A DNA stretch of 64,000 nt, from the sequence record PZ445488.1. One strand, given 5' to 3'. Below, one piece after another: positions 20,066-40,845 of this stretch (position 1 is its first letter; the number at the start of each line of letters is the position of its first letter). Both the position numbers and the translations under genes were made by a program. The DNA comes from a phage. The notes below the pieces were generated by a model. The model made no database searches, was not told the origin of the DNA, and saw only the letters and a program-made list of their open reading frames with translations.

Positions 20066-20073
20066 GGTATAAA
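20066..20073 (+). promoter_or_regulatory. late promoter TATAAATA for gene 34
   Basis: exact TATAAATA 33 nt upstream of gene 34 ATG. Confidence 0.6.
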
Positions 20074-20105
20074 TAAGTATTATTGAAACAATAAAGGAAA
20101 AACGA

Positions 20106-23100
20106 ATGGCCGACATCAAACGTAAGTTCAGAGCCGAAGACGGTCTGGACGCCGGTGGCGACAAGATTGTTAACGTAGCATTAGCCGACCGTACAGTAGG
20201 TACTGATGGCGTAAACGTTGACTTCCTGGTACAAGAAAACACCGTTCAAGTATATGATTCTACGCGTGGATACAACAAAGGATTTGTTGTTCTTTATGAC
20301 AACCGTTTATATCAAGCAATAAATGATATCGTGTCTCCTTCCGGGGCATTTAACCTTTTACAATGGCGTGCAGTTCGTACCGATGCACAATGGATAACTG
20401 TCGCTTCTGGGACTTATCAACTTTCTTCAGGTGAATCGATTTCGGTTAACACTGGTGCCGGCAATGATATGGTTTTTACATTGCCAAATACTCCAGTTGA
20501 TGGTGATACTGTTGTTTTGGCTGATATTGGTGGACGAACCGGGACAGTTAAAGTACAGATTAACGCGTCTGTACAGAGTATTTTAAACTTTAGAGGTGAA
20601 CAAGTTCGTACGGTTTTAATGACGCGCCCACGTTCACAACTATTGTTTGTGTTTAGTAATCGTTTGTGGCAGATGTATATTACCGATTATGGTAAAGAAT
20701 CAATCACTGTTACACCTGCGACACCATATCAAGCACAAGCAAATGATTTTATCGTTCGTCGTTTTACTAGTGCAGCACCAATCAACATTACACTTCCACG
20801 TAATGCTAACAACGGTGATATAATCAGCCTAGTCGATTTAGATAGATTAAACCCACTGTATCATACATTTGTTAAAACATTTGATGATACAACGTCTATT
20901 GGTGAAGTCGGGACTCATATTGCCGAAGGCAGAAATGACTCTGACGCGTTTTTTGTTTTTGATGCTGCAAATAGTTTATGGCGTATATGGGAAGGCGACC
21001 AGAAATCGCGTCTTCGTATTATCCGTGCGGATTCAAATATTCGTCCAAATGAAGAAGTTCTTATTTTTGGCACAAATAACGCTACAACCGGAACTATTAA
21101 TCTTACGCTGCCTACCGGAATTTTGAGTGGTGACACTGTTAAAATTTCAATGAACTACATGCGTAAAGGTCAAACAGTAAAAATTAAAGCTGCCGAAGGT
21201 GATACAATTGCTTCCACTGTTGCATTGCTTCAGTTCCCTAAACGTTCTGAATATCCACCTGATGCTCAATGGGTCTCTGTTACTGAACTAGAATTCAATG
21301 GCACTACTTCATATGTTCCTGTATTAGAATTAGCGTATATCGAAGACACCGTTGCTGGTACACGTTATTGGGTTGTGCAACAGAATGTCCCTACAGTAGA
21401 ACGTGTTGATGCTGGAACTGATGCTACACGAGCTCGTTTAGGTGTTATTGCTCTTGCTACTCAAGCGCAAGCAAATGTTGATTTAGAGAATACTCCAGCT
21501 AAAGAAGTGGCTATTACTCCTGAAACGTTGGCAAATCGTACAGCAACTGAAGCTCGACGTGGTATCGCTAAAATTGCTACAACAGCACAAGTTAACCAGA
21601 ATTCCACAGCAACATTTGTGGATGATACTATTGTTACGCCTAAAAAACTAAATGAGCGTACAGCAACTGAAACTCGTCGTGGTCTTGCTGAAATTGCTAC
21701 TCAGGCTGAAACAGATGCTGGTCTTGACGACACAACGATTATTACACCTAAGAAATTACAGGCACGTCAGGGTTCCGAAACACTATCTGGTATAGTTAAA
21801 TATGTATCAACTACTTCTGCTACTCCTGCTGAAACTCGTGGGACCGCAGGCACTAACGTTTATAATAAAACCGTAAATAATTTAACTATTTCTCCTAAAG
21901 CCCTTGACCAATATAAAGCAACTTATGCTCAACAAGGTGCGGTAATTTTAGCTATTGATAGTGAAGTAATTGCCGGACAATCTCAGTCTGGATACTCTCA
22001 CGCTGTAGTAACTCCTGAAACACTACATAAGAAAACTTCTACTGATGGACGTATTGGTTTAATTGAAATTGCTACGCAAGCAGAAACTAACACTGGAACT
22101 GATTATACTAGAGCAGTAACGCCTAAGACGTTAAATGATAGGAAAGCTACGGAAGGATTATCCGGCATAGCCGAAATTGCTACGCAAGTTGAATTTGATA
22201 CTGGAACTGATGATACTCGTATCTCGTCTCCACTGAAAATTAAAACTCATTTTAATTCTTCTGACCGTACCAGTGTTAATTCTGATTCCGGACTTATTGA
22301 AGAAGGAACCTTGTGGAACCATTATACTCTTGATATTTCTAAAGCAAATGAAACACAACGCGGTACGCTTCGCGTAGCGACCCAAGCAGAATCTAATGCA
22401 GGAACTTTAGATGATGTTCTTATTACTCCTAAAAAGCTTTTAGGAACTAAGTCCACTGAAACGTCTGAAGGCGTGATTAAGGTTGCTACTCAGGCTGAAA
22501 CTGTAACAGGAACTTCTGCTAATACTGCTGTATCTCCTAAGAATTTAAAATGGATTGTCCAGAATGAACCAACATGGGCTGCTACTACTGCAATAAGAGG
22601 TTTTGTTAAAACTTCATCTGGTTCAATTACATTCGTTGGTAATGATACAGTTGGTTCAACACAACCTTTAGAATCATATGAAAAAAATAGCTATGCTATA
22701 TCTCCATATGAATTAAACCGTGTACTTGCTAACTATTTGCCATTGAAAGCTAAAGCCGTAGATAGTAATCTGTTAGATGGTCTAGATTCTCTTCAGTTCA
22801 TCCGTAGAGACATCGACCAGACGGTTAATGGTTCTTTAAGTCTTACTAAACAGACCAACCTGAGTGCTCCTTTAGTATCTACAAGCACTGCTTCTTTTGG
22901 GTCCGAAGCATCTGTTACTCGTAGATTAACTCTTAATGACTCTAGCGGTTCCGAAATAGTTTTCACTAAAGGAACCCAATCTCTTAGTAATAAAGAGAAT
23001 TTCGTTGTTAGAGCATGGGGTAATAGCTCTACAGATGGTGCCCGTGATACAGTATTTGAAGCTGGTGACGAAACCGGATACCATTTCTATTCTCAGCGCG

Positions 23101-23939
23101 CTTCTGATAATAAAGTATCATTTAATATTAATGGAACACTTTATTCAACAGGTATTGTTTCTACAAATGGATTAAATGTTACAGGTGTTTCTACCTTTAC
23201 CGGGCCTATTAGTGCTACAGGTGAAATTGTTTCTAGTTCTCCTATTGCATTCAGAGCTATTAACGGTAACTATGGTGTTATGCTTTATAATGCTGGTGAC
23301 AATTCTTATATTGCATTAACTAACTCAGGTGACCAGACTGGGACGTTTAATAACTTACGCCCGATCACGATTAACAATGCCACAGGACTGGTTCGTCTTG
23401 ACAACGGTGTTCAAATCACAAGTGGTGCAACAATAACTACCGGCGGGTTAACTGTAAATAACAGGATTATTTCTAACGGCGTTAAAACTGCCACGGTTTA
23501 TACCGATAAACCAACAGCTTCTACTGTAGGTTTTTGGTCTATTGACATTAACGATTCTGCCGTATATAGCCAATTCCCTGGATACTGGACGCGTGATAAC
23601 AAAGGTAACCGTGACCAAGAAATTAAATATCCTGGTACTTTGACTCAATTCGGCAATAGCTTAGATTCGCTTTATCAGGATTGGATTTGTTATCCTACAG
23701 GTGCAAATGGTGGTAGTATTCGTTATACTCGTACCTGGCAGAAAAATAAAGATGCTTGGACTTCATTTGCAATGGTATTTGATAGTGGCAACCCACCTTC
23801 ACCTAGCGATGTCGGTGCTATCCCGTCTGATAATGCTGTTATTGGAAACCTTACTATTCGAGACTTCTTACAATTAGGAAATGTGAGAATTGTTCCAGAC
23901 CCGGTTAACAAAACAGTTAAATTTATATGGGTTGAATAA
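20106..23939 (+). CDS. 34: long tail fibre proximal subunit gp34
   Basis: 1277 aa; first gene of the plus-strand late block; repeated ATQAE/ETxxG segments typical of the gp34 shaft. Confidence 0.9.
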   Translation: MADIKRKFRAEDGLDAGGDKIVNVALADRTVGTDGVNVDFLVQENTVQVYDSTRGYNKGFVVLYDNRLYQAINDIVSPSGAFNLLQWRAVRTDAQWITVASGTYQLSSGESISVNTGAGNDMVFTLPNTPVDGDTVVLADIGGRTGTVKVQINASVQSILNFRGEQVRTVLMTRPRSQLLFVFSNRLWQMYITDYGKESITVTPATPYQAQANDFIVRRFTSAAPINITLPRNANNGDIISLVDLDRLNPLYHTFVKTFDDTTSIGEVGTHIAEGRNDSDAFFVFDAANSLWRIWEGDQKSRLRIIRADSNIRPNEEVLIFGTNNATTGTINLTLPTGILSGDTVKISMNYMRKGQTVKIKAAEGDTIASTVALLQFPKRSEYPPDAQWVSVTELEFNGTTSYVPVLELAYIEDTVAGTRYWVVQQNVPTVERVDAGTDATRARLGVIALATQAQANVDLENTPAKEVAITPETLANRTATEARRGIAKIATTAQVNQNSTATFVDDTIVTPKKLNERTATETRRGLAEIATQAETDAGLDDTTIITPKKLQARQGSETLSGIVKYVSTTSATPAETRGTAGTNVYNKTVNNLTISPKALDQYKATYAQQGAVILAIDSEVIAGQSQSGYSHAVVTPETLHKKTSTDGRIGLIEIATQAETNTGTDYTRAVTPKTLNDRKATEGLSGIAEIATQVEFDTGTDDTRISSPLKIKTHFNSSDRTSVNSDSGLIEEGTLWNHYTLDISKANETQRGTLRVATQAESNAGTLDDVLITPKKLLGTKSTETSEGVIKVATQAETVTGTSANTAVSPKNLKWIVQNEPTWAATTAIRGFVKTSSGSITFVGNDTVGSTQPLESYEKNSYAISPYELNRVLANYLPLKAKAVDSNLLDGLDSLQFIRRDIDQTVNGSLSLTKQTNLSAPLVSTSTASFGSEASVTRRLTLNDSSGSEIVFTKGTQSLSNKENFVVRAWGNSSTDGARDTVFEAGDETGYHFYSQRASDNKVSFNINGTLYSTGIVSTNGLNVTGVSTFTGPISATGEIVSSSPIAFRAINGNYGVMLYNAGDNSYIALTNSGDQTGTFNNLRPITINNATGLVRLDNGVQITSGATITTGGLTVNNRIISNGVKTATVYTDKPTASTVGFWSIDINDSAVYSQFPGYWTRDNKGNRDQEIKYPGTLTQFGNSLDSLYQDWICYPTGANGGSIRYTRTWQKNKDAWTSFAMVFDSGNPPSPSDVGAIPSDNAVIGNLTIRDFLQLGNVRIVPDPVNKTVKFIWVE

Positions 23940-23947
23940 GAGGTTAT

Positions 23948-25072
23948 ATGGAAAAATTTATGGCAAGGTTTGGACAGGGATACGTCCAAACGCCGTTTTT
24001 ATCGGAAAGCAATTCAGTTAGATTTAAACTAAGTATAGCGGGTTCATGCCCGCTTTCAACAACTAATCCGTATATTTTGTTCCAAAACGAGCCTTTAGGG
24101 TTGCAGTCTTTTGGTATTGGACTAAATGTTAGGGTAATAAATCCGGAAAATGGAACTATAGTTGATAGTAAATTATACAATTTTGCGCCTACAAATAATG
24201 CAACTTCGGCCGCGTTTATTTCGTTTGTTAATACATACGCAGATAATTTCATTTTCGCATTTATTTCTAATAACAAATTTAATTTGCCGCCAGAAATAAT
24301 TGGATGGTTTAAAGCTGCTGGGAGTTCAGTTATACCGTCAATTGAAGTTGCTAGTCTTGTTGATATTTCATATTCAGCGTTTTATGTTTCAGGTAAAAAT
24401 ACTATTGCATTAGAACACATAAAATACAGTAATAAGAAAACAATTTCTGATTACGCAACTCCATTAGATATTGTATATGACTCTATTGCTGATATAGGTG
24501 CTACCGGCTATCCTAGACGTACATATGAAGCTCTAGAAACGTTTTTATCTCCTGTTGGAGGAACTAACAATGAAATAAAAAGGGTGCCTACATCATCTCT
24601 TGTTACTCCTATCGCAAACTATGGATTAAAGCCTACAGATTTTCTTTATTTGAAATTTCAATTAATGGCTGATGAAGCATTACTAGAGGAAGGAACCACA
24701 AGACTTTCAATTCGTTTCTTTAAGACTCCATCTAGCTCTCCTATATTGTCTAAAGATATAAACTTTGATGGAACTGCTGGTGAATGGAAGTTATACGAAG
24801 AATACGTTGAAATACCAGCTGAAGCCGATGGCTTTACAGTATATTGTTACCGTACGGCCCCAGTCGGTCAAGGTGGACTAAGAAATGTTATTTTCACTGA
24901 AGTATCATGTAACGGAAGTATAGCAAAACCTGCCGAGTTTGGCCTAAACGGTATTCGTGCTAATTACATCGATGAATCATTAATCGGTAATGATATAATG
25001 GACTTGCCTACTCAGTTATCTAACGACACAGGTAAGGTATTTGGGCAGGAATTTAAAGAGTACACAGAATAA
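23948..25072 (+). CDS. 35: long tail fibre hinge protein gp35
   Basis: 374 aa, syntenic. Confidence 0.8.
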   Translation: MEKFMARFGQGYVQTPFLSESNSVRFKLSIAGSCPLSTTNPYILFQNEPLGLQSFGIGLNVRVINPENGTIVDSKLYNFAPTNNATSAAFISFVNTYADNFIFAFISNNKFNLPPEIIGWFKAAGSSVIPSIEVASLVDISYSAFYVSGKNTIALEHIKYSNKKTISDYATPLDIVYDSIADIGATGYPRRTYEALETFLSPVGGTNNEIKRVPTSSLVTPIANYGLKPTDFLYLKFQLMADEALLEEGTTRLSIRFFKTPSSSPILSKDINFDGTAGEWKLYEEYVEIPAEADGFTVYCYRTAPVGQGGLRNVIFTEVSCNGSIAKPAEFGLNGIRANYIDESLIGNDIMDLPTQLSNDTGKVFGQEFKEYTE

Positions 25073-25097: not shown

Positions 25098-25105
25098 TAT
25101 AAATA
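25098..25105 (+). promoter_or_regulatory. late promoter TATAAATA for genes 36/37
   Basis: exact TATAAATA 26 nt upstream of gene 36 ATG. Confidence 0.6.
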
Positions 25106-25131: not shown

Positions 25132-25788
25132 ATGGCCGATTTAAAAGCCGGAAGTACAGTTGGTGGTTCCGTCATATGGCATCAAGGCAATTTTCCTTTA
25201 ATGCCAGCTGGCGATGACATCCTATATAAAACATTTAAATTATACACCGAATATAACAAGCCAAAAGCGGCTGATAACGATTTCGTATCTAAAGCAAATG
25301 GTGGGACATATCTCAAAAAGGTAATCTTTAACGAAGGTGTTGCAGTCAAAACAGCAGATGACCAAACGAATGGTATTTTTTCTGGTGGTGGTGACGCCGC
25401 GACATTCGACCAAACAAACATGGATATTGTTTCGTGGTATGGTATTGGGTTTAAATCATCTCAAGGTACAGGTGAAAGAACTGTTGTAATTGATACTCGC
25501 ACCGGTAATATAAGTTCTAAAGGCGTTATTGAAGCATCTCAATTCAGAGCCACAACGTTAGCACCTTTAAATAATTACGACCTTACTCGCAAAGATTATG
25601 TTGATAGTCAAATAAATACAGTTAATGCTAATGCAAACAGTCGTGTACTCCGTTCAGGAGATACGATGACCGGCGCGCTAACAGCCCCAAACTTTTTCTC
25701 ACAGAATCCTGCATCTCAACCATCGCATGTTCCACGATTTGACCAAATTGTTATTAAGGATTCTGTTCAAGATTTCGGCTATTATTAA
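25132..25788 (+). CDS. 36: long tail fibre distal connector gp36
   Basis: 218 aa, syntenic. Confidence 0.8.
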   Translation: MADLKAGSTVGGSVIWHQGNFPLMPAGDDILYKTFKLYTEYNKPKAADNDFVSKANGGTYLKKVIFNEGVAVKTADDQTNGIFSGGGDAATFDQTNMDIVSWYGIGFKSSQGTGERTVVIDTRTGNISSKGVIEASQFRATTLAPLNNYDLTRKDYVDSQINTVNANANSRVLRSGDTMTGALTAPNFFSQNPASQPSHVPRFDQIVIKDSVQDFGYY

Positions 25789-25796
25789 GAGGACTT

Positions 25797-28700
25797 ATGG
25801 CTACTTTAAAACAAATACAATTTAAAAGAAGCAAAACTGCAGGAGCACGTCCTGCCGCTTCAGTATTAGCCGAAGGTGAATTGGCTATAAACTTAAAAGA
25901 CCGTGTACTTTTTACTAAAGATGACCAAGGAAATATTATTGATCTGGGTTTTGCTAAAGGTGGTAGTATTGACGGGAATGTTATTCATATAGGAAACTAT
26001 AATCAAACTGGTGATTATACTTTAAATGGCGTCTTCACTCAGACTGGTAATTTTAATTTAACTGGTATTGCTCGAGTAACTCGCGATATTATTGCCGCTG
26101 GGCCGATTATGACTGAAGGCGGAGAACTTATTACAAAAAGTTCAGGTACATCACATGTTCGTTTTCATGATTCAGCTGACCGTGAACGTGGAATCATTTT
26201 TTCTCCTGCTAATGATGGATTAACTACACAAGTAATTAATATTAGAGTTCAAGACTACGCAGCTGGTAGCGAAAGCACCTATGCATTTTCAGGCAGTGGA
26301 CAATTTATTTCACCTGAAGTATCGGCATGGAAATCTATGTCAACTCCTCAGATTTTGACTGACAAAGTCATTACAGACGGGAAGAAGGCAGGTGATTATG
26401 ACATCTATTCATTAGCAAATAATAATTCTAATACAGATAAAAATAATTTACGTGTTGTACGTACCGACCCAGCGGCCGCAATGCTCCATGAAATTTGTGA
26501 AAACAACGGCATCAGTTGGTATTCTGGTTCAACCCCTACTGATTATATGTTATCTTTTGCTTATTCCGGCGGTTTTCAAGCAGGCCATTCGATTGCAGTA
26601 GGTATGGAATCAGGGCCTATGACATATTCAACCTTAGGTAAAGGTTCTATTGTTCTTGGGGATAATGATACTGGATTTAAATGGCATCAAGACGGATATT
26701 ATTTCAGCGTTAATAATGGAACAAAAACGTTTTTATTTAATCCTAGCGAAACAACTAGCCTAAGAAAATTTGTAGCTGGATATTCTACTAATGGAACCGA
26801 TTTAACTACTCCTCCAACTGAAAACTATGCTCTTGCTACTGTTGTGACATATCACGATAATAACGCGTTTGGAGATGGTCAGACTCTTTTGGGATATTAT
26901 CAAGGCGGTAACTATCATCACTATTTCCGTGGTAAGGGTACCACAAACATTAATACTCATGGCGGTTTGTTGGTTACTCCTGGTAATATTGATGTTATTG
27001 GCGGTTCTGTTAATATAGATGGTAGAAATAATTCTTCTACACTAATGTTTAGAGGCAACACAACAGGATACAGCTCGGTTGATAATATGGATATTAAAGT
27101 TTGGGGTAATACGTTTGTTGATCCAAGCGGAGGTATCCGTAAAAACATTATGGAAATTTCTGATGCAACTAGCTGGATGAGCTATATTCAAAGACTTACT
27201 ACTGGCGAAGTAGAAATGAACGTTAATGGTTCATTTGAATCATCTGGTGTTACTGCTGGAGATAGAGGAGTTCACACAACAGGTGAAATTTCATCTGGAG
27301 CAGTGAATGCTCTTCGTATTTGGAACGCAGATTATGGAGCCATTTTTAGACGTTCAGAAGGAAGTCTTCATATTATTCCAACTGCTTATGGCGAAGGCAA
27401 AGATGGCGATATTGGTCCACTTCGCCCATTTAGTATGGCTTTAGATACTGGTAAAGTTACTATTCCAGATTTACAATCAAGTTACAATACGTTCGCTGCT
27501 AACGGTTATATTAAATTTGTTGGTCATGGAGCGGGTGCCGGCGGTTATGACATTCAATATGCTCAAGCGGCTCCTATTTTCCAGGAAATTGATGATGATG
27601 CTGTAAGCAAATATTATCCTATTGTTAAACAGAAGTTTTTAAACGGTAAATCTGTTTGGTCTTTAGGTACCGAAATTGAATCAGGTACATTCGTTATTCA
27701 TCATCTGAAAGAAGATGGTTCACAAGGCCATACATCAAGATTTAATATGGATGGTACAGTTAATTTCCCTGATAATGTTCTGGTCGGTGGTGGTGAAGCT
27801 GCTATTGCTCGTAATGGTAATATTTTCTCGGATATTTGGAAAACGTTTACTTCTGCAGGCGACGTAACTAATATTCGCGATGCAATAGCTACTCGTGTTG
27901 CCAAAGAAGGTGACACGATGACAGGTCGTTTAACTCTTAAAACCAACGCAGATGCTGTTGTTATTGATTATCCGGCAGATGAAGCGGGTTATGTTAAGGG
28001 TAAAAAAGGTGGTGCTGATAACTGGTATGTCGGTAACGGTGGTGCTGATGATGGTTTAGCCTTCTGGAGCTTCCAATCCAAAGGCGGTATTAATATTAAC
28101 CCTAATGGCGAGGTTATTCTATCTCCACAGGGCACTAGTATATTCAATATAAACCGCGACCGTATTCATATGAATGGTTCCAACTGGATTGCACATAAAT
28201 CTGGTAAGTGGGGCGACCAATGGGGCTTAGAAGCACCTTATTTCCTTGATTTTGGTAACGTTGGCGAAGACAGTTATTATCCTATCATTAAAGGCCGATC
28301 TTTAATTAGTGGTCAGGGTTATACTACTTCTGTTGAATTAGGCCTGCGTCGTACTCCACAAACATGGGGACAAGCGATAATTCGAGTTGGTAATGCCGAA
28401 GGCGCTGACGGTCCTGTAGGTATTTTCGAATTCCACTCTGACGGTAGATTTTACTCCCCGACTTTAGTCCAGACTCCTGCAATTGGTGTTGGTACTGATA
28501 ATGGACTTGGTGCTCCAAGTATTGCAATCGGTGATAATGACACGGGCTTATCACATGGTGGTGACGGTCGAGTTAATATGGTTGCTAACGGGATTCATAT
28601 TGCATCTTGGTCTAACTCTTACCATACTCATGAAGGTCTTTGGGGTACCAATGGTGCTTTGTGGACTGAAACAGGAAGAGCTATTATTTCTTTTGGCCAT

Positions 28701-29090
28701 TTAGTCCAACAAAGCGACGCCTATTCTACATATGTTCGAGACGTTTATGTTCGTTCTGATATTCGTGTTAAAAAAGACCTTGTTAAATTTGAAAATGCTT
28801 CCGAGAAGCTTTCTAAAATTAACGGTTACACTTATATGCAGAAACGTGGAACTGACGAAGAAGGTAACCAGAAATGGGAACCTAACGCCGGTTTGATAGC
28901 TCAAGAAGTTCAAGCTATTTTACCAGAATTAGTTGAAGGCGACCCTGATGGTGAAGCTTTACTTCGTTTGAACTATAACGGCGTAATTGGTTTAAATACA
29001 GCTGCAATCAATGAGCATACTGCAGAAATTGCAGAACTTAAGTCAGAGATTGAAGAGCTTAAAAATTTAGTTAAATCATTGTTAAAATAA
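25797..29090 (+). CDS. 37: long tail fibre distal subunit gp37 with C-terminal intramolecular-chaperone (peptidase S74-like) domain
   Basis: 1097 aa; C-terminus ...RSDIRVKKDL...INGYTYMQ... then coiled-coil tail resembles autoproteolytic chaperone domains of phage fibres. Confidence 0.85.
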   Translation: MATLKQIQFKRSKTAGARPAASVLAEGELAINLKDRVLFTKDDQGNIIDLGFAKGGSIDGNVIHIGNYNQTGDYTLNGVFTQTGNFNLTGIARVTRDIIAAGPIMTEGGELITKSSGTSHVRFHDSADRERGIIFSPANDGLTTQVINIRVQDYAAGSESTYAFSGSGQFISPEVSAWKSMSTPQILTDKVITDGKKAGDYDIYSLANNNSNTDKNNLRVVRTDPAAAMLHEICENNGISWYSGSTPTDYMLSFAYSGGFQAGHSIAVGMESGPMTYSTLGKGSIVLGDNDTGFKWHQDGYYFSVNNGTKTFLFNPSETTSLRKFVAGYSTNGTDLTTPPTENYALATVVTYHDNNAFGDGQTLLGYYQGGNYHHYFRGKGTTNINTHGGLLVTPGNIDVIGGSVNIDGRNNSSTLMFRGNTTGYSSVDNMDIKVWGNTFVDPSGGIRKNIMEISDATSWMSYIQRLTTGEVEMNVNGSFESSGVTAGDRGVHTTGEISSGAVNALRIWNADYGAIFRRSEGSLHIIPTAYGEGKDGDIGPLRPFSMALDTGKVTIPDLQSSYNTFAANGYIKFVGHGAGAGGYDIQYAQAAPIFQEIDDDAVSKYYPIVKQKFLNGKSVWSLGTEIESGTFVIHHLKEDGSQGHTSRFNMDGTVNFPDNVLVGGGEAAIARNGNIFSDIWKTFTSAGDVTNIRDAIATRVAKEGDTMTGRLTLKTNADAVVIDYPADEAGYVKGKKGGADNWYVGNGGADDGLAFWSFQSKGGININPNGEVILSPQGTSIFNINRDRIHMNGSNWIAHKSGKWGDQWGLEAPYFLDFGNVGEDSYYPIIKGRSLISGQGYTTSVELGLRRTPQTWGQAIIRVGNAEGADGPVGIFEFHSDGRFYSPTLVQTPAIGVGTDNGLGAPSIAIGDNDTGLSHGGDGRVNMVANGIHIASWSNSYHTHEGLWGTNGALWTETGRAIISFGHLVQQSDAYSTYVRDVYVRSDIRVKKDLVKFENASEKLSKINGYTYMQKRGTDEEGNQKWEPNAGLIAQEVQAILPELVEGDPDGEALLRLNYNGVIGLNTAAINEHTAEIAELKSEIEELKNLVKSLLK

Positions 29091-29096
29091 TAAGAG

Positions 29097-29110
29097 GGGC
29101 TGAAGCCCCT
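29097..29110 (+). terminator. hairpin ggggc-ugaa-gcccc after gene 37
   Basis: inverted repeat between gp37 stop and gp38 start. Confidence 0.4.
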
Positions 29111-29895
29111 TGGAGGTTTATATGGCAGTTGAAGGACCGTGGGTAGGATGGTCTGCGAGAGTACAAACTGGAGACCCTTGGATGGGTGGTGCCGCACAGA
29201 GATTGAGAATGGGAATTCCGTTTTGGATGAGTAATATGATAGGTCGATCTGTTGAAGTAATTCACACGCTTGGAGCAGACCATAACTTCAATGGCCAATG
29301 GTTCCGAGATAGATGTTTTGAGGCAGGTAGTGCACCTATAGTGTTTAATATCACTGGAAATTTAGTATCATATAGTAAAGATGTTCCATTATTCTTTATG
29401 TATGGCGATACGCCAAATGAATATGTTACTTTGAATATTCACGGTGGAGTTCATATGTGGGGACGAGGTGGTAACGGTACTGTAAACGGAAACCCAGGCA
29501 CAAATGGCGGCGATGTAATCCAAAATGATATCGGCGGAAGACTTCGTATTTGGAACTATGGCGTTATTGCATCAGGCGGCGGCGGTGGTGGTGCGGTGTC
29601 ATTACAGAATAGCTGGGCACCAAATGCTACAGCAGGTGGCGGTGGCGGCAGACCATTTGGCCTCGGCGGAGGCGGCGTTAATTGGCCTGGTGGTAATGCT
29701 AGTTATGACGCCCCGGGCGGCGCCGGTTACACTTCCCAATTCGGCGGTGGTAATGGCGGGGATGCTGGAGGTCGGGGCGGAGATGGATGGGGCAAACACT
29801 TATCTAGATCTGGGGGTGGTGCTCCTGGTAGAGCAGTATTCGGAAGTTCACCGACATGGGGTGCTACAGGCACAATTTACGGCTCCTGGATTTAA
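29110..29895 (+). CDS. 38: receptor-binding adhesin gp38 (T2-type, glycine-rich motifs)
   Basis: 261 aa; runs of GGGGGGA, AGGGGGR, GLGGGG, GGGNGG, GGRGGDG separated by short variable segments. Confidence 0.85.
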
Positions 29896-29913
29896 ACGAT
29901 AATACCTCTCAAT

Positions 29914-29921
29914 TATAAATA
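29914..29921 (+). promoter_or_regulatory. late promoter TATAAATA for t
   Basis: exact TATAAATA 20 nt upstream of holin ATG. Confidence 0.55.
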
Positions 29922-29940
29922 TTGATAAATGGGAGGTAAT

Positions 29941-30600
29941 ATGGCAGCACCTAGAATATCATTTTCGCCTAGTGATATTTTATTTGGGTTGCTAGACCGC
30001 ATTTTCAAAGATAACGCCTCTGGAAATATTCTTATTTCCAGAGTTGCTGTTGTAGTTCTTTTGTTCCTAATGGCACTAATATGGTACAAAGGGAATATTT
30101 TTATGGATTATTACGTGAGGTCGAAATATGATACTTACACAGAAGTAATTCAAAAAGAAAGAAATACACGATTTGAATCTGCGGCTTTAGAACAACTACA
30201 AATAGTCCACGTCACATCAAGGGCGGATTTTAGTTCGGTGTATTCTTTCAGACCTAAAAATCTAAATTATTTCGTCGACCTTATTGCGTATGAAGGTAAG
30301 TTACCTAGCACAGTAACTGAAAAATCTATGGGAGGATTTCCTGTTGATAAAACGACAGCAGAATATTCGGTCCATTTAAGTGGACTTCACTTTACTTCTA
30401 AAACAGATTTTGCTTTCTTACCTACCAAATCAAAAACTCCGGAACTGGCGTATATGTATAGTTGTCCTTACTTCAATTTGGATAACATATATGCGGGAAC
30501 TGTTTCTATGTATTGGTATAAGGGATCGGATGTGCTAAATGAAGAACGCTTGGCTGCAATATGCAACCAAGCAGCAAGGATATTAGGGCGGGCTAAATAA
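29941..30600 (+). CDS. t: holin T; start set at MAAPRISF
   Basis: 219 aa; MAAPRISFSPSDILFGLLDR...CPYFNLDNIYAGT...AARILGRAK matches remembered T4 holin. Confidence 0.9.
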   Translation: MAAPRISFSPSDILFGLLDRIFKDNASGNILISRVAVVVLLFLMALIWYKGNIFMDYYVRSKYDTYTEVIQKERNTRFESAALEQLQIVHVTSRADFSSVYSFRPKNLNYFVDLIAYEGKLPSTVTEKSMGGFPVDKTTAEYSVHLSGLHFTSKTDFAFLPTKSKTPELAYMYSCPYFNLDNIYAGTVSMYWYKGSDVLNEERLAAICNQAARILGRAK

Positions 30601-38631: not shown

Positions 38632-40845
38632 TTATTTGGCTGCTTCCACAGCCTTCATGAATTTAACGATTTGAGCGACTTGTTCTTTAGAAAGAGTACC
38701 ACGTCGTCCCATGTAGTCTGACACAATATGATAATTGGTTTCGAATTCAATAACCATTTTATCATCATTATCGTAAGCATTATCTTTAAGCTTATCGAAA
38801 ATTTTAGCACACAATTCTAACTTCTTATTCAGGTCTGTATTAGTAGCACCTGCGAATCGATTCCATCCCCAACGATTATTTACTGTTGAGAGTTTTGCAA
38901 AGTCTTTACTGATTTCTTTGTTCTTAGAGCTAAAATACTTACTAAGGAAGTTAAGCTCTTCATTACGAGTAATATGATTCAAATAAGGCTGTGCTCTACG
39001 ACTTGGTGATACATACTCATCATAATCTACTTTATCGATTAGCGTAATATAGTCATTAATTGATTTTTCGAACAAGCATTCTACTTCACCAAGTTTACGA
39101 ACTTTCTTAGCAATCTGTGGACGAACTACAGTGAACTCTTTAATACCTGACAAATCAGCAATACGGGTCAAGAAATTGGAGTCATAGTTCAACCAACCTT
39201 TATCTGCGTCAAGACATTCAGCATTAGAACGATTACGAACTATAGCATAACCTTGGATTTCATCTGCTTCACTTGCCGGAATAAAGAGGTCTTCTGATAC
39301 CCAAACATCGTTTTCATTCTTAAAGAATCGATGAGCACTTGGGGATTTAGGACGAGGCTCATTAGTCCGTTTCCTGACTTCAATCCATGGCTTAACGATT
39401 TGTAAAAGCTCTGAAGTCTTGTACATGTTAATGTTGTCGCCATCAAAGATAACTTTAAGGCGTTCCAGAAGTTTCATTGCATCTTCGTCTGTAGGGTCAA
39501 CGAATAGTACGCTTTTACCAAAACCGCGTGGAACTTTACCGGTTAATTTAACCTCGTCTTTAGACATTTCAATTGAATTAAGAGCTCGCATTAATGGAAC
39601 GCGTCCCTTAACGTCGTCAATAACAATTTCAACGTTTTTAATGTTAATGCCAATCAGGCTGTTAATTGAAATAGTTGATGATGAGCTACCACTTTCACGA
39701 ATACGACGAAGACGAGGGGATTCAACGATATCGTATACGACGCCAAGATTACACCACTCAGGCCCCATTTTAAAACGTTTGTACAACTCAGAATAAGTTA
39801 GTTGTTCTTTAGAGTATTTCAGTGATTCAATATTAGACCCGGCCTTTTCCATGTATTTACGAGCGGTATAGCCAAGAGAATCAATTTCACGGAACACATG
39901 ACGTGGGTATTTACAATCAATCCATTTCTTAGAATCTTCAGCGAACAATTTAGCATCGATTTCTGCAACGCGTTTATGGATATTTGCTACCGTACGTTTA
40001 TCAAATGACAATGCTTCACGAGACGGAGCTACATCTAGTTCACCCATAGGGAATTTAATATAAGCTGTAGTGCATCGTGTCATCATCCATGTTTGTTCTT
40101 TAATAACACTTCCGATTGGATATACAATACCACCGTAAACAGCCATGATATTACCGCGTTCACCCCATGGAGCTTCCTTGGCCAAATATACATCATCAAA
40201 TTCAGGGAAGTATTTAATATCTTTAACACCACGAACTTCTGCAATATCACCTAGAGGACGCATAACATATGCAATTTCGGATGCGAACTTTTCAAAATCT
40301 TCCGGGTTAACCGGTACGACTACTTCTACACCAGTACGGTCATCAGGACCCATCTTATCTACAAAGGTCGGCTTAATTTGTGGACCCGTATCATCTTGGT
40401 AGATTACGTAACCACGAACTTCGCCGTTGTGATAAGACGTAAGGTTAAACGTATCGGTATATGCTAGCGGAGCTTTAGAGCCGAGTCCGAATCCACCGAT
40501 GAAATCGTTACTCGATGTTTTAGTTGAAGCAAAATATGAGTTATAGATTCCTGGCTCTTCGTCATTACCTCGAATGGTGAAATCGCTCATACCAGGACCA
40601 AAGTCTCGAACTACAAAACGTGGGTCTAAACGACCTGGAGCCTGAACAATAAACTTATCAGTGCAACCGTTAAGAATTTGTCCATCGATACAGTTTGTAA
40701 TTAATTCACGTACACAAGCCAATTCTTTGTTTGTATAAAGGTCATTAGACAAAATCTTATAAACTTTGCTATTGCCTTGAATAGTGAATGCTGTGCTCTT
40801 ACCACCGGAACCAATAATCGTTTCTTTAGCAGTTTCAATAATCAT
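38632..40845 (-). CDS. rIIA: rIIA protein
   Basis: 737 aa; N-terminal GHKL-type ATPase-like region; T4 RIIA-like. Confidence 0.9.
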   Translation of the reverse strand: MIIETAKETIIGSGGKSTAFTIQGNSKVYKILSNDLYTNKELACVRELITNCIDGQILNGCTDKFIVQAPGRLDPRFVVRDFGPGMSDFTIRGNDEEPGIYNSYFASTKTSSNDFIGGFGLGSKAPLAYTDTFNLTSYHNGEVRGYVIYQDDTGPQIKPTFVDKMGPDDRTGVEVVVPVNPEDFEKFASEIAYVMRPLGDIAEVRGVKDIKYFPEFDDVYLAKEAPWGERGNIMAVYGGIVYPIGSVIKEQTWMMTRCTTAYIKFPMGELDVAPSREALSFDKRTVANIHKRVAEIDAKLFAEDSKKWIDCKYPRHVFREIDSLGYTARKYMEKAGSNIESLKYSKEQLTYSELYKRFKMGPEWCNLGVVYDIVESPRLRRIRESGSSSSTISINSLIGINIKNVEIVIDDVKGRVPLMRALNSIEMSKDEVKLTGKVPRGFGKSVLFVDPTDEDAMKLLERLKVIFDGDNINMYKTSELLQIVKPWIEVRKRTNEPRPKSPSAHRFFKNENDVWVSEDLFIPASEADEIQGYAIVRNRSNAECLDADKGWLNYDSNFLTRIADLSGIKEFTVVRPQIAKKVRKLGEVECLFEKSINDYITLIDKVDYDEYVSPSRRAQPYLNHITRNEELNFLSKYFSSKNKEISKDFAKLSTVNNRWGWNRFAGATNTDLNKKLELCAKIFDKLKDNAYDNDDKMVIEFETNYHIVSDYMGRRGTLSKEQVAQIVKFMKAVEAAK

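Follow-up and report, generated by a model that had tools for sequence, protein, structure and literature searches.

Introduction

The long-tail-fibre tips of T2, S16 and related phages are the closest described counterparts of genes 37 and 38 in the DNA analyzed here, a 64,000-nucleotide (nt) stretch of phage sequence (record PZ445488.1; hereafter the window). The classical demonstration comes from T2. As cited in later papers, Drexler, Riede and Henning (1986-87) showed that the C-terminus of T2 gp37 is removed, and gp38, which has glycine-rich constant and hypervariable regions, recognizes the receptor. Autoproteolytic release has been reported for T2 and T6 (PMC3157838). In phage S16, whose gp37-gp38 tip has been solved (PDB 6F45; Dunne et al. 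2018), the last 113 residues of gp37 are autocleaved at a mapped site (PMC7917993), between S and SDRRIKK. One monomeric gp38 is held by three tryptophans at the tips of its N-terminal helical bundle, and past this bundle the protein forms a beta-helix and then a polyglycine-II sandwich that carries five distal loops (PMC6851490). The beta-helix is built from both N- and C-terminal parts (Lutz 2025). PP01 gp38 (PDB 9V85; mBio 2026) likewise has a beta-helix, a polyglycine-II sandwich and loops laid out from A to E. S16 binds OmpC of Salmonella, PP01 binds OmpC of O157, and the literature assigns FadL/OmpF to T2. The gp37 chaperone domain belongs to the same Pfam family as the endosialidase/K1F-type chaperone and the eukaryotic MYRF ICA domain, which share trimerization-dependent self-cleavage. 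The MYRF paper (PMC3742443) describes the catalytic dyad of this S74 type as a Ser and a Lys at i,i+5, accompanied by an Arg.

Over the 4099 nt of genes 37 and 38, the window is 100% identical to a contig deposited for Escherichia phage CEV1 (GenBank KM389393.1). The 24-kb stretches on either side share 94-97% identity with genomes of RB69-like Mosigvirus phages. Because of these matches, the window is, as judged from its sequence, CEV1 (an RB69-like Mosigvirus) or an indistinguishable isolate. NCBI taxonomy places the KM389393 phage in the genus Mosigvirus, species Mosigvirus utam.

We consider it about 90% probable that genes 37 and 38 of CEV1 encode a long-tail-fibre tip of the T2/S16 type that works as follows. 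gp37 would be made as a 1097-residue precursor, the last 111 residues of which would act as a Peptidase_S74 chaperone, starting the folding of the trimeric beta-helical fibre and setting its register. After the trimer has folded, S987, activated by K992 and with R990 nearby, would cut between R986 and S987 and so free the 12-kDa chaperone. The exposed tip (...DVYVR) would be capped by one gp38, with W7, W20 and W35 of its N-terminal helical domain entering three symmetry-related pockets of gp37. The glycine motifs of gp38 would pack as a polyglycine-II sandwich displaying five variable loops, and in CEV1 these loops are proposed to recognize the porin OmpF, with the lipopolysaccharide (LPS) core as a further need for infection.

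This is a textbook T2-type tip. Its architecture, its mechanism and the CEV1 receptor are all already published, and nothing in it is new. The argument joins what the sequences show (membership of both families, the catalytic motif, the pattern of conserved and variable residues, near-identity to OmpF users and modular exchange) to published observations, namely cleavage and structure in S16, processing in T2 and the OmpF/LPS requirement of CEV1. The two genes decide which bacteria can be attached to by CEV1, a biocontrol phage isolated against E. coli O157:H7, and for those who wish to engineer host range, the loops of gp38 offer a practical target. The value of the analysis lies in correct annotation, as many records of near-identical genes mislabel a T2/S16-type gp38 as an "assembly catalyst" or "chaperone".

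Results and Discussion

gp37 carries a C-terminal Peptidase_S74 domain

The following features of gene 37 are considered.

25797..29090, plus strand: gene 37, open reading frame (ORF) for the precursor of the distal subunit of the long tail fibre; 1097 residues, 118.1 kDa
25797..28754, plus strand: predicted mature gp37, residues 1-986, 105.8 kDa, ending ...YVRDVYVR; predicted gp38 docking surface
28755..28772, plus strand: autoproteolysis motif S987-D-I-R990-V-K992, with Ser as nucleophile, Lys as base at i+5 and Arg between them
28755..29087, plus strand: intramolecular chaperone domain, predicted to be released after trimerization; residues 987-1097 (111 residues, 12.35 kDa)
28977..29087, plus strand: C-terminal heptad-repeat helix of the chaperone domain, residues 1061-1097 (the last 37)

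Over its full length gp37 matches phrog_1699, "long tail fiber protein distal subunit" (E = 0), and its Pfam matches are to Gp34_trimer, gp37_trimer (weak) and Peptidase_S74. An earlier note on this DNA had proposed that gp37 ends in an S74-type chaperone domain with a coiled-coil tail, to be checked by a hidden Markov model search for Peptidase_S74, and both elements of that proposal held up. Peptidase_S74 (PF13884, "chaperone of endosialidase") matches residues 987-1046 (nt 28755-28934) with positions 1-57 of its 58-position profile, and the score (E = 9.4e-13; 48.7 bits against a gathering cut-off of 22) is far beyond chance. Profile position 1 falls exactly on S987, which has the Ser/Lys dyad spacing of the family. 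In the best heptad register of residues 1061-1097, I, L or V fills 8 of the 10 a/d positions (scored as I/L/V/M/F) and the last six of these positions read ILILVL, a pattern that suggests a helix. The string VRSDIRVKKDLVKFENASEKLSKINGYTYMQ quoted in the earlier note begins at residue 985, and its starting point for this region, 28700, is codon 968, 19 codons ahead of the S74 domain.

The C-terminus of gp37 (residues 902-1097) aligns with the S16 tip and chaperone (6F45_A; E = 2.6e-46) through to the last residue. Around the cut site the alignment pairs DVYVR^SDIRVKK of CEV1 with DLNVS^SDRRIKK of S16, and the residue before the scissile bond is Ser in S16 but Arg at the predicted CEV1 site. Because CEV1 aligns with the mapped S16 cut, cleavage should occur between R986 and S987 and, by analogy, would yield a mature gp37 of 986 residues and a released fragment of 111 residues (12.35 kDa). 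As in the endosialidase and MYRF proteins, self-cleavage of CEV1 gp37 is predicted by homology to depend on trimerization. In contrast to those proteins, the CEV1 passenger is a T-even distal fibre, not a tailspike or a transcription factor, and in the T2/S16-type tip release of the domain also makes a docking site for a second protein.

We also considered the possibility that the S74 domain is a non-cleaving remnant, in which case gp37 would keep its whole length and gp38 would attach at another site or not at all. Cleavage of CEV1 gp37 is a prediction by homology, and gp37 in the T6 record AF052605 has Asn for the catalytic Lys, both of which would fit a remnant. However, S987, R990 and K992 are intact in CEV1, and the SDxRxK motif is kept in 13 of 14 intact gp37 homologues in our alignment. 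vB_EcoM_005, whose gp37 is split in its record and represented by a 128-residue terminal ORF only, was left out of these and all other gp37 comparisons. The T6 record has an ambiguous residue near the motif, and its Asn is probably a sequencing error. Moreover, the gp38 docking surface of S16 is exposed only once the domain has been released (PMC7917993), and in 14 phages the type of gp38 N-terminus tracks the type of gp37 tip, as is expected only if the two proteins touch. A remnant is thus very unlikely in our view, and we favour a self-cleaving chaperone in CEV1.

The two unusual records merit separate description. T6 gp37 in AF052605 reads SDSRLNINK, with Asn where all other intact gp37 proteins carry the catalytic Lys; given the ambiguous residue (X) nearby, we regard this as probably a sequencing error and not an inactive chaperone domain. 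In vB_EcoM_005 (MK295203, 1246-3969), gene 37 is spread over several ORFs, which represents either assembly frameshifts or a truly disrupted fibre gene, and gp38 is intact and 92% identical to that of CEV1. Within the CEV1 shaft, residues 414-557 of gp37 (27036-27467) are a copy of the Gp34_trimer module, 30% identical to residues 949-1098 of gp34 in the same window (22950-23399; E = 2e-12). This module also matches PDB 4UXE/5NXF and is a domain common to proximal and distal fibre subunits.

gp38 belongs to the T2/S16-type adhesins

Gene 38 and its parts are as follows.

29112..29116, plus strand: Shine-Dalgarno sequence GGAGG, 5 nt upstream of the gp38 ATG
29122..29895, plus strand: gene 38, T2/S16-type tail-fibre adhesin, 257 residues plus stop
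29122..29253, plus strand: N-terminal attachment domain with Trp prongs W7, W20 and W35, residues 1-44
29254..29445, plus strand: conserved central region, beta-helix domain by homology, residues 45-108
29446..29841, plus strand: receptor-binding region, residues 109-240, with glycine motifs (polyglycine-II sandwich by homology) and five variable segments
29842..29892, plus strand: conserved C-terminal strand that returns to the beta-helix, residues 241-257

The earlier note had described gp38 as a T2/S16-type adhesin of 261 residues with polyglycine motifs separated by variable segments. The length has to be corrected to 257 residues, starting at ATG 29122, which is preceded by the Shine-Dalgarno sequence. 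The first in-frame TTG, at 29110, which gives the length of 261, was rejected as the start codon, since it lies in the stem of an intergenic hairpin and 15 of 15 homologues begin MAV... at the ATG that matches 29122. The remainder of the description is confirmed by database matches and by an alignment of CEV1 gp38 with those of 15 phages of Mosigvirus, Tequatrovirus, Dhakavirus and Gelderlandvirus. Pfam GP38 (PF05268) covers residues 45-257 over profile positions 1-218 of 218 (E = 1.8e-83; 280.1 bits against a cut-off of 25), and Gp38_N (PF21721) covers residues 1-40 over positions 1-40 of 40 (E = 6.5e-20; 71.3 bits against a cut-off of 25). The protein also matches phrog_2056, "tail fiber protein; host specificity" (E = 4e-107). 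The best match among solved structures is the receptor-binding domain of PP01 gp38 (PDB 9V85; residues 37-256, E = 5e-75), and the S16 adhesin (PDB 6F45_D) is matched over the full length (E = 1.5e-47).

All three tryptophans that would hold gp38 to the fibre, W7, W20 and W35, are invariant in the 16 aligned proteins. Residues 1-44 as a whole match those of RB69 and AV119 at 100% identity, compared to just 52% for fPS-90 and Shf125875, and residues 45-108 are 84-100% identical in all relatives from phages of E. coli, Yersinia and Shigella. Glycine makes up 25% of gp38 and 34% of residues 110-257, with runs of six (152-157), five (172-176) and four (182-185) and two runs of three. Across residues 109-240, mean column entropy is 0.41 bits in the 48 glycine columns compared to 1.22 bits in the 84 others. 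The variable stretches (residues ~120-128, 158-171, 185-190, 195-209 and 217-232) are the counterparts of loops A-E in the solved PP01 protein and match the arrangement of five glycine motifs with four hypervariable segments between them that was described by Trojet et al. (PMC3157838). The polyglycine-sandwich fold of gp38, like its beta-helix and five loops, is predicted purely by homology to solved structures.

CEV1 gp38 differs from its structurally defined counterparts within this common plan. Its identity to the S16-like protein of phage NP4 is only about 46%, and its loops are unlike those of PP01. T2, a phage outside our alignment, has another subtype of N-terminus and gp37 tip, and other loops.

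In the records of several nearly identical genes, including those of RB69 (AY303349), Shf125875 (KM407600) and vB_EcoM_005, the product is called a "distal long tail fiber assembly catalyst" or a "chaperone". Taken literally, these labels would place gp38 with the T4 protein, a chaperone that serves solely in assembly and is missing from virions, while the gp37 C-terminus itself binds the receptor. However, the labels go back to the name of the T4 gene, and the RefSeq note for RB69 itself names the T2-subfamily gp38 as an adhesin. CEV1 gp38 matches the adhesin families PF05268 and PF21721 and the solved adhesins 6F45_D and 9V85, and gp37 ends in a predicted cleavable S74 domain, not in the T4 needle tip. 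When PDB sequences were searched with gp37, the only chains at E <= 0.01 were 6F45_A and those of gp34, and no T4 gp37 tip chain was among them. The Pfam gp37_trimer match scores 16.6 bits, below its cut-off of 21.7, and lies at residues 729-771, away from the tip. As no T4-type gp37 needle tip was found, the arrangement is therefore that of T2/S16 and not that of T4, and we judge a pure chaperone role for gp38 to be extremely improbable.

The composition of the region follows from the adhesin gene. GC content reaches 0.52 at 29000-29999, compared to a background of 0.33-0.40, and GC skew rises to between +0.24 and +0.30; both are due to the GGN codons of gp38. ORFs at 29525..29902 (plus strand) and 29602..29799 (minus strand) inside gene 38 were discounted as by-products of this GGN-rich, stop-poor sequence.

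The receptor-binding region resembles those of OmpF-dependent phages

We compared residues 109-240 of gp38 with the corresponding regions of other phages. They are 98.5-99.2% identical to those of RB69, FL31, fPS-90 and Shf125875, and 45-66% identical to adhesins of other specificities, represented by AV119 (OmpA), T6 (Tsx) and the PP01-like and S16-like proteins (OmpC). RB69 is reported to need OmpF, FhuA and a full LPS core (PMC3157838); FL31 needs OmpF/TolC, with a weak phenotype (PMC12032242); and in Yersinia both OmpF and the LPS core are required by fPS-90 (PMC7917993). CEV1 has itself been screened by RB-TnSeq, CRISPRi and Dub-seq, which showed that ompF, envZ/ompR and LPS-core genes are required (PMC7553319). 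In the same study, ompF was the top hit in two types of screen, overexpression of micF protected the host, and plating on hosts deleted for ompF or for lpcA was regained by complementation. Thus, the receptor requirement of CEV1 (OmpF and LPS core), which the earlier note had proposed to determine with porin-deficient hosts, is already published, and it agrees with the sequence-based prediction. That gp38, rather than another fibre protein, contacts OmpF in CEV1 is what the similarity of the adhesins would predict.

The adhesin might instead recognize another receptor, perhaps OmpC as in S16 and PP01, with the dependence on OmpF being indirect. O157:H7 was the host on which CEV1 was isolated, and OmpC is the receptor that PP01, a phage of O157, uses via its gp38; in addition, the effects of ompF, ompR and envZ are genetic and not biochemical (PMC7553319). 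Yet residues 109-240 are only 55-58% identical to the PP01-like adhesins of G4507 and KIT03, compared to 98.5-99.2% for phages whose OmpF dependence comes from three independent studies (PMC7917993, PMC12032242, PMC3157838). The position of ompF at the top of two types of screen and the restoration of plating by complementation (PMC7553319) also argue for OmpF. We give a different receptor only a slight chance, and OmpF remains the favoured partner of the CEV1 loops.

RB69, the type phage of Mosigvirus, offers the closest comparison. Its gp38 is 98.8% identical to that of CEV1, with three substitutions in 257 residues (L181, K225 and T245 in CEV1; I, N and S in RB69), its gp37 tip and chaperone are 92-98% identical (residues 951-1097), and its gene order is the same. 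In contrast, the gp37 shaft is only 44-72% identical at residues 201-300 and 701-950. K225 (AAA, 29794-29796) lies in the last variable loop and is Asn in RB69, FL31, LF82-3, fPS-90 and Shf125875; T245 is Ser in all five of these OmpF-type relatives. What is specific to CEV1 is limited to the three gp38 substitutions relative to RB69, K225 among them, and its particular gp37 shaft mosaic. It is conceivable, though unlikely, that K225 tunes recognition of OmpF alleles or access through the O-antigen on O157:H7, thereby adding to the O157 host range of CEV1.

Several considerations weigh against the mechanism proposed here. That CEV1 gp37 is cut at R986-S987 and that its virions carry gp38 are predictions by homology with other phages. 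A single-sequence AlphaFold2 model of gp38 was unusable (mean pLDDT 30.6, pTM 0.17). With regard to the receptor, a genetic requirement for OmpF is not by itself proof that gp38 is the OmpF-binding partner, and the need for the LPS core may be direct or may be indirect, acting through the short tail fibres or through the level of OmpF; Trojet et al. note such indirect effects (PMC3157838). Finally, on ompF mutants FL31 is reduced by just one log (PMC12032242).

The gp37-gp38 interface has been exchanged as a unit

Comparison with Shf125875, a phage of the same species, revealed a block of divergence that spans the junction of the two genes.

27897..29296, plus strand: exchanged module relative to Shf125875, comprising gp37 residues ~701-1097 and gp38 residues 1-58

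DNA identity between the two phages is 99-100% at 25797-27096 and 96-100% at 29297-29896, compared to 23-75% across 27897-29296. The part of the block that encodes the distal shaft (27897-28596) is matched best by LF82-3, and the part for the tip, chaperone domain and gp38 N-terminus (28597-29296) by RB69. The receptor-binding part of gp38 is nearly identical in Shf125875 despite the exchange of the distal third of gp37 and the gp38 N-terminus. The interface is swapped as a unit, and the same predicted OmpF-binding head thus rides on different fibre tips.

The pairing of subtypes is consistent among the 14 phages with intact gp37. gp38 proteins that begin MAVEGPW, MAVTGPW or MAVQGPW occur with a ...VRDVYVR tip (CRDLNVS in the S16-like phages), and those that begin MAVVG(V/I)PGW occur with a ...NDVYIR tip. 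This "lock-and-key" linkage of gp38 N-terminus and gp37 tip was described by Trojet et al. in 2011 (PMC3157838) and has been confirmed functionally with PP01/T2 chimeras (mBio 2026). The exchange in CEV1 is an instance of this known modularity.

Transcription and the gene 37-38 junction

Two further elements were located around genes 36 to 38.

25098..25105, plus strand: TATAAATA, a late promoter motif of the T4 type, upstream of gene 36
29094..29111, plus strand: GC-rich intergenic hairpin GAGGGGC-UGAA-GCCCCUU, in the interval from the gp37 double stop to the gp38 Shine-Dalgarno sequence

The promoter motif also occurs at 20068-20075, before gene 34, and at 29914-29921, before gene t, and a scan for it found none before gene 37 or gene 38. 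Because the motif precedes genes 34, 36 and t but not genes 37 and 38, we suggest that genes 36, 37 and 38 form one late transcription unit, which the motif at 25098 probably drives as a single transcript. The motif is found 7 times in the window against 7.5 expected, a chance level, and the promoter assignments are accordingly by position only.

Gene 38 starts 31 nt past the gp37 stop codon, and RB69 has the same intergenic spacing. The hairpin in this interval has a folding energy of -14.9 kcal/mol in a 51-nt context (z = -1.8 against shuffled sequences), which is not significant alone. It was rejected as a terminator, as the coding strand has no T-run and a terminator-like call was obtained on the opposite strand only. 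The hairpin could be an element of RNA stability or translational coupling. A similar element in phage G4507 is annotated as a putative terminator.

Gene neighbourhood

The window has the T4-like gene order g34-35-36-37-38-t-asiA-motA-g52, with the following neighbours of genes 37 and 38.

20106-23939: gene 34, 5' of genes 37 and 38 in the late tail-fibre cluster
23948-25072: gene 35, 5' of genes 37 and 38
25132-25788: gene 36, directly 5' of gene 37
29929-30600: holin gene t, 3' of gene 38
Minus strand, downstream of holin t: asiA, motA and topoisomerase gene 52

Rfam and tRNA scans of the whole window found nothing. A Pfam search with a 736-residue ORF amid the topoisomerase genes (38632-40845, minus strand) gave no match at E <= 0.001. 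The product of gene 35 (23948-25072), the proximal connector of the long tail fibre, matches Pfam ILEI, the interleukin-like EMT inducer or FAM3-PANDER fold, over residues 58-131 (E = 3.4e-6); at 27.9 bits it clears the gathering score of 27 by a small margin.

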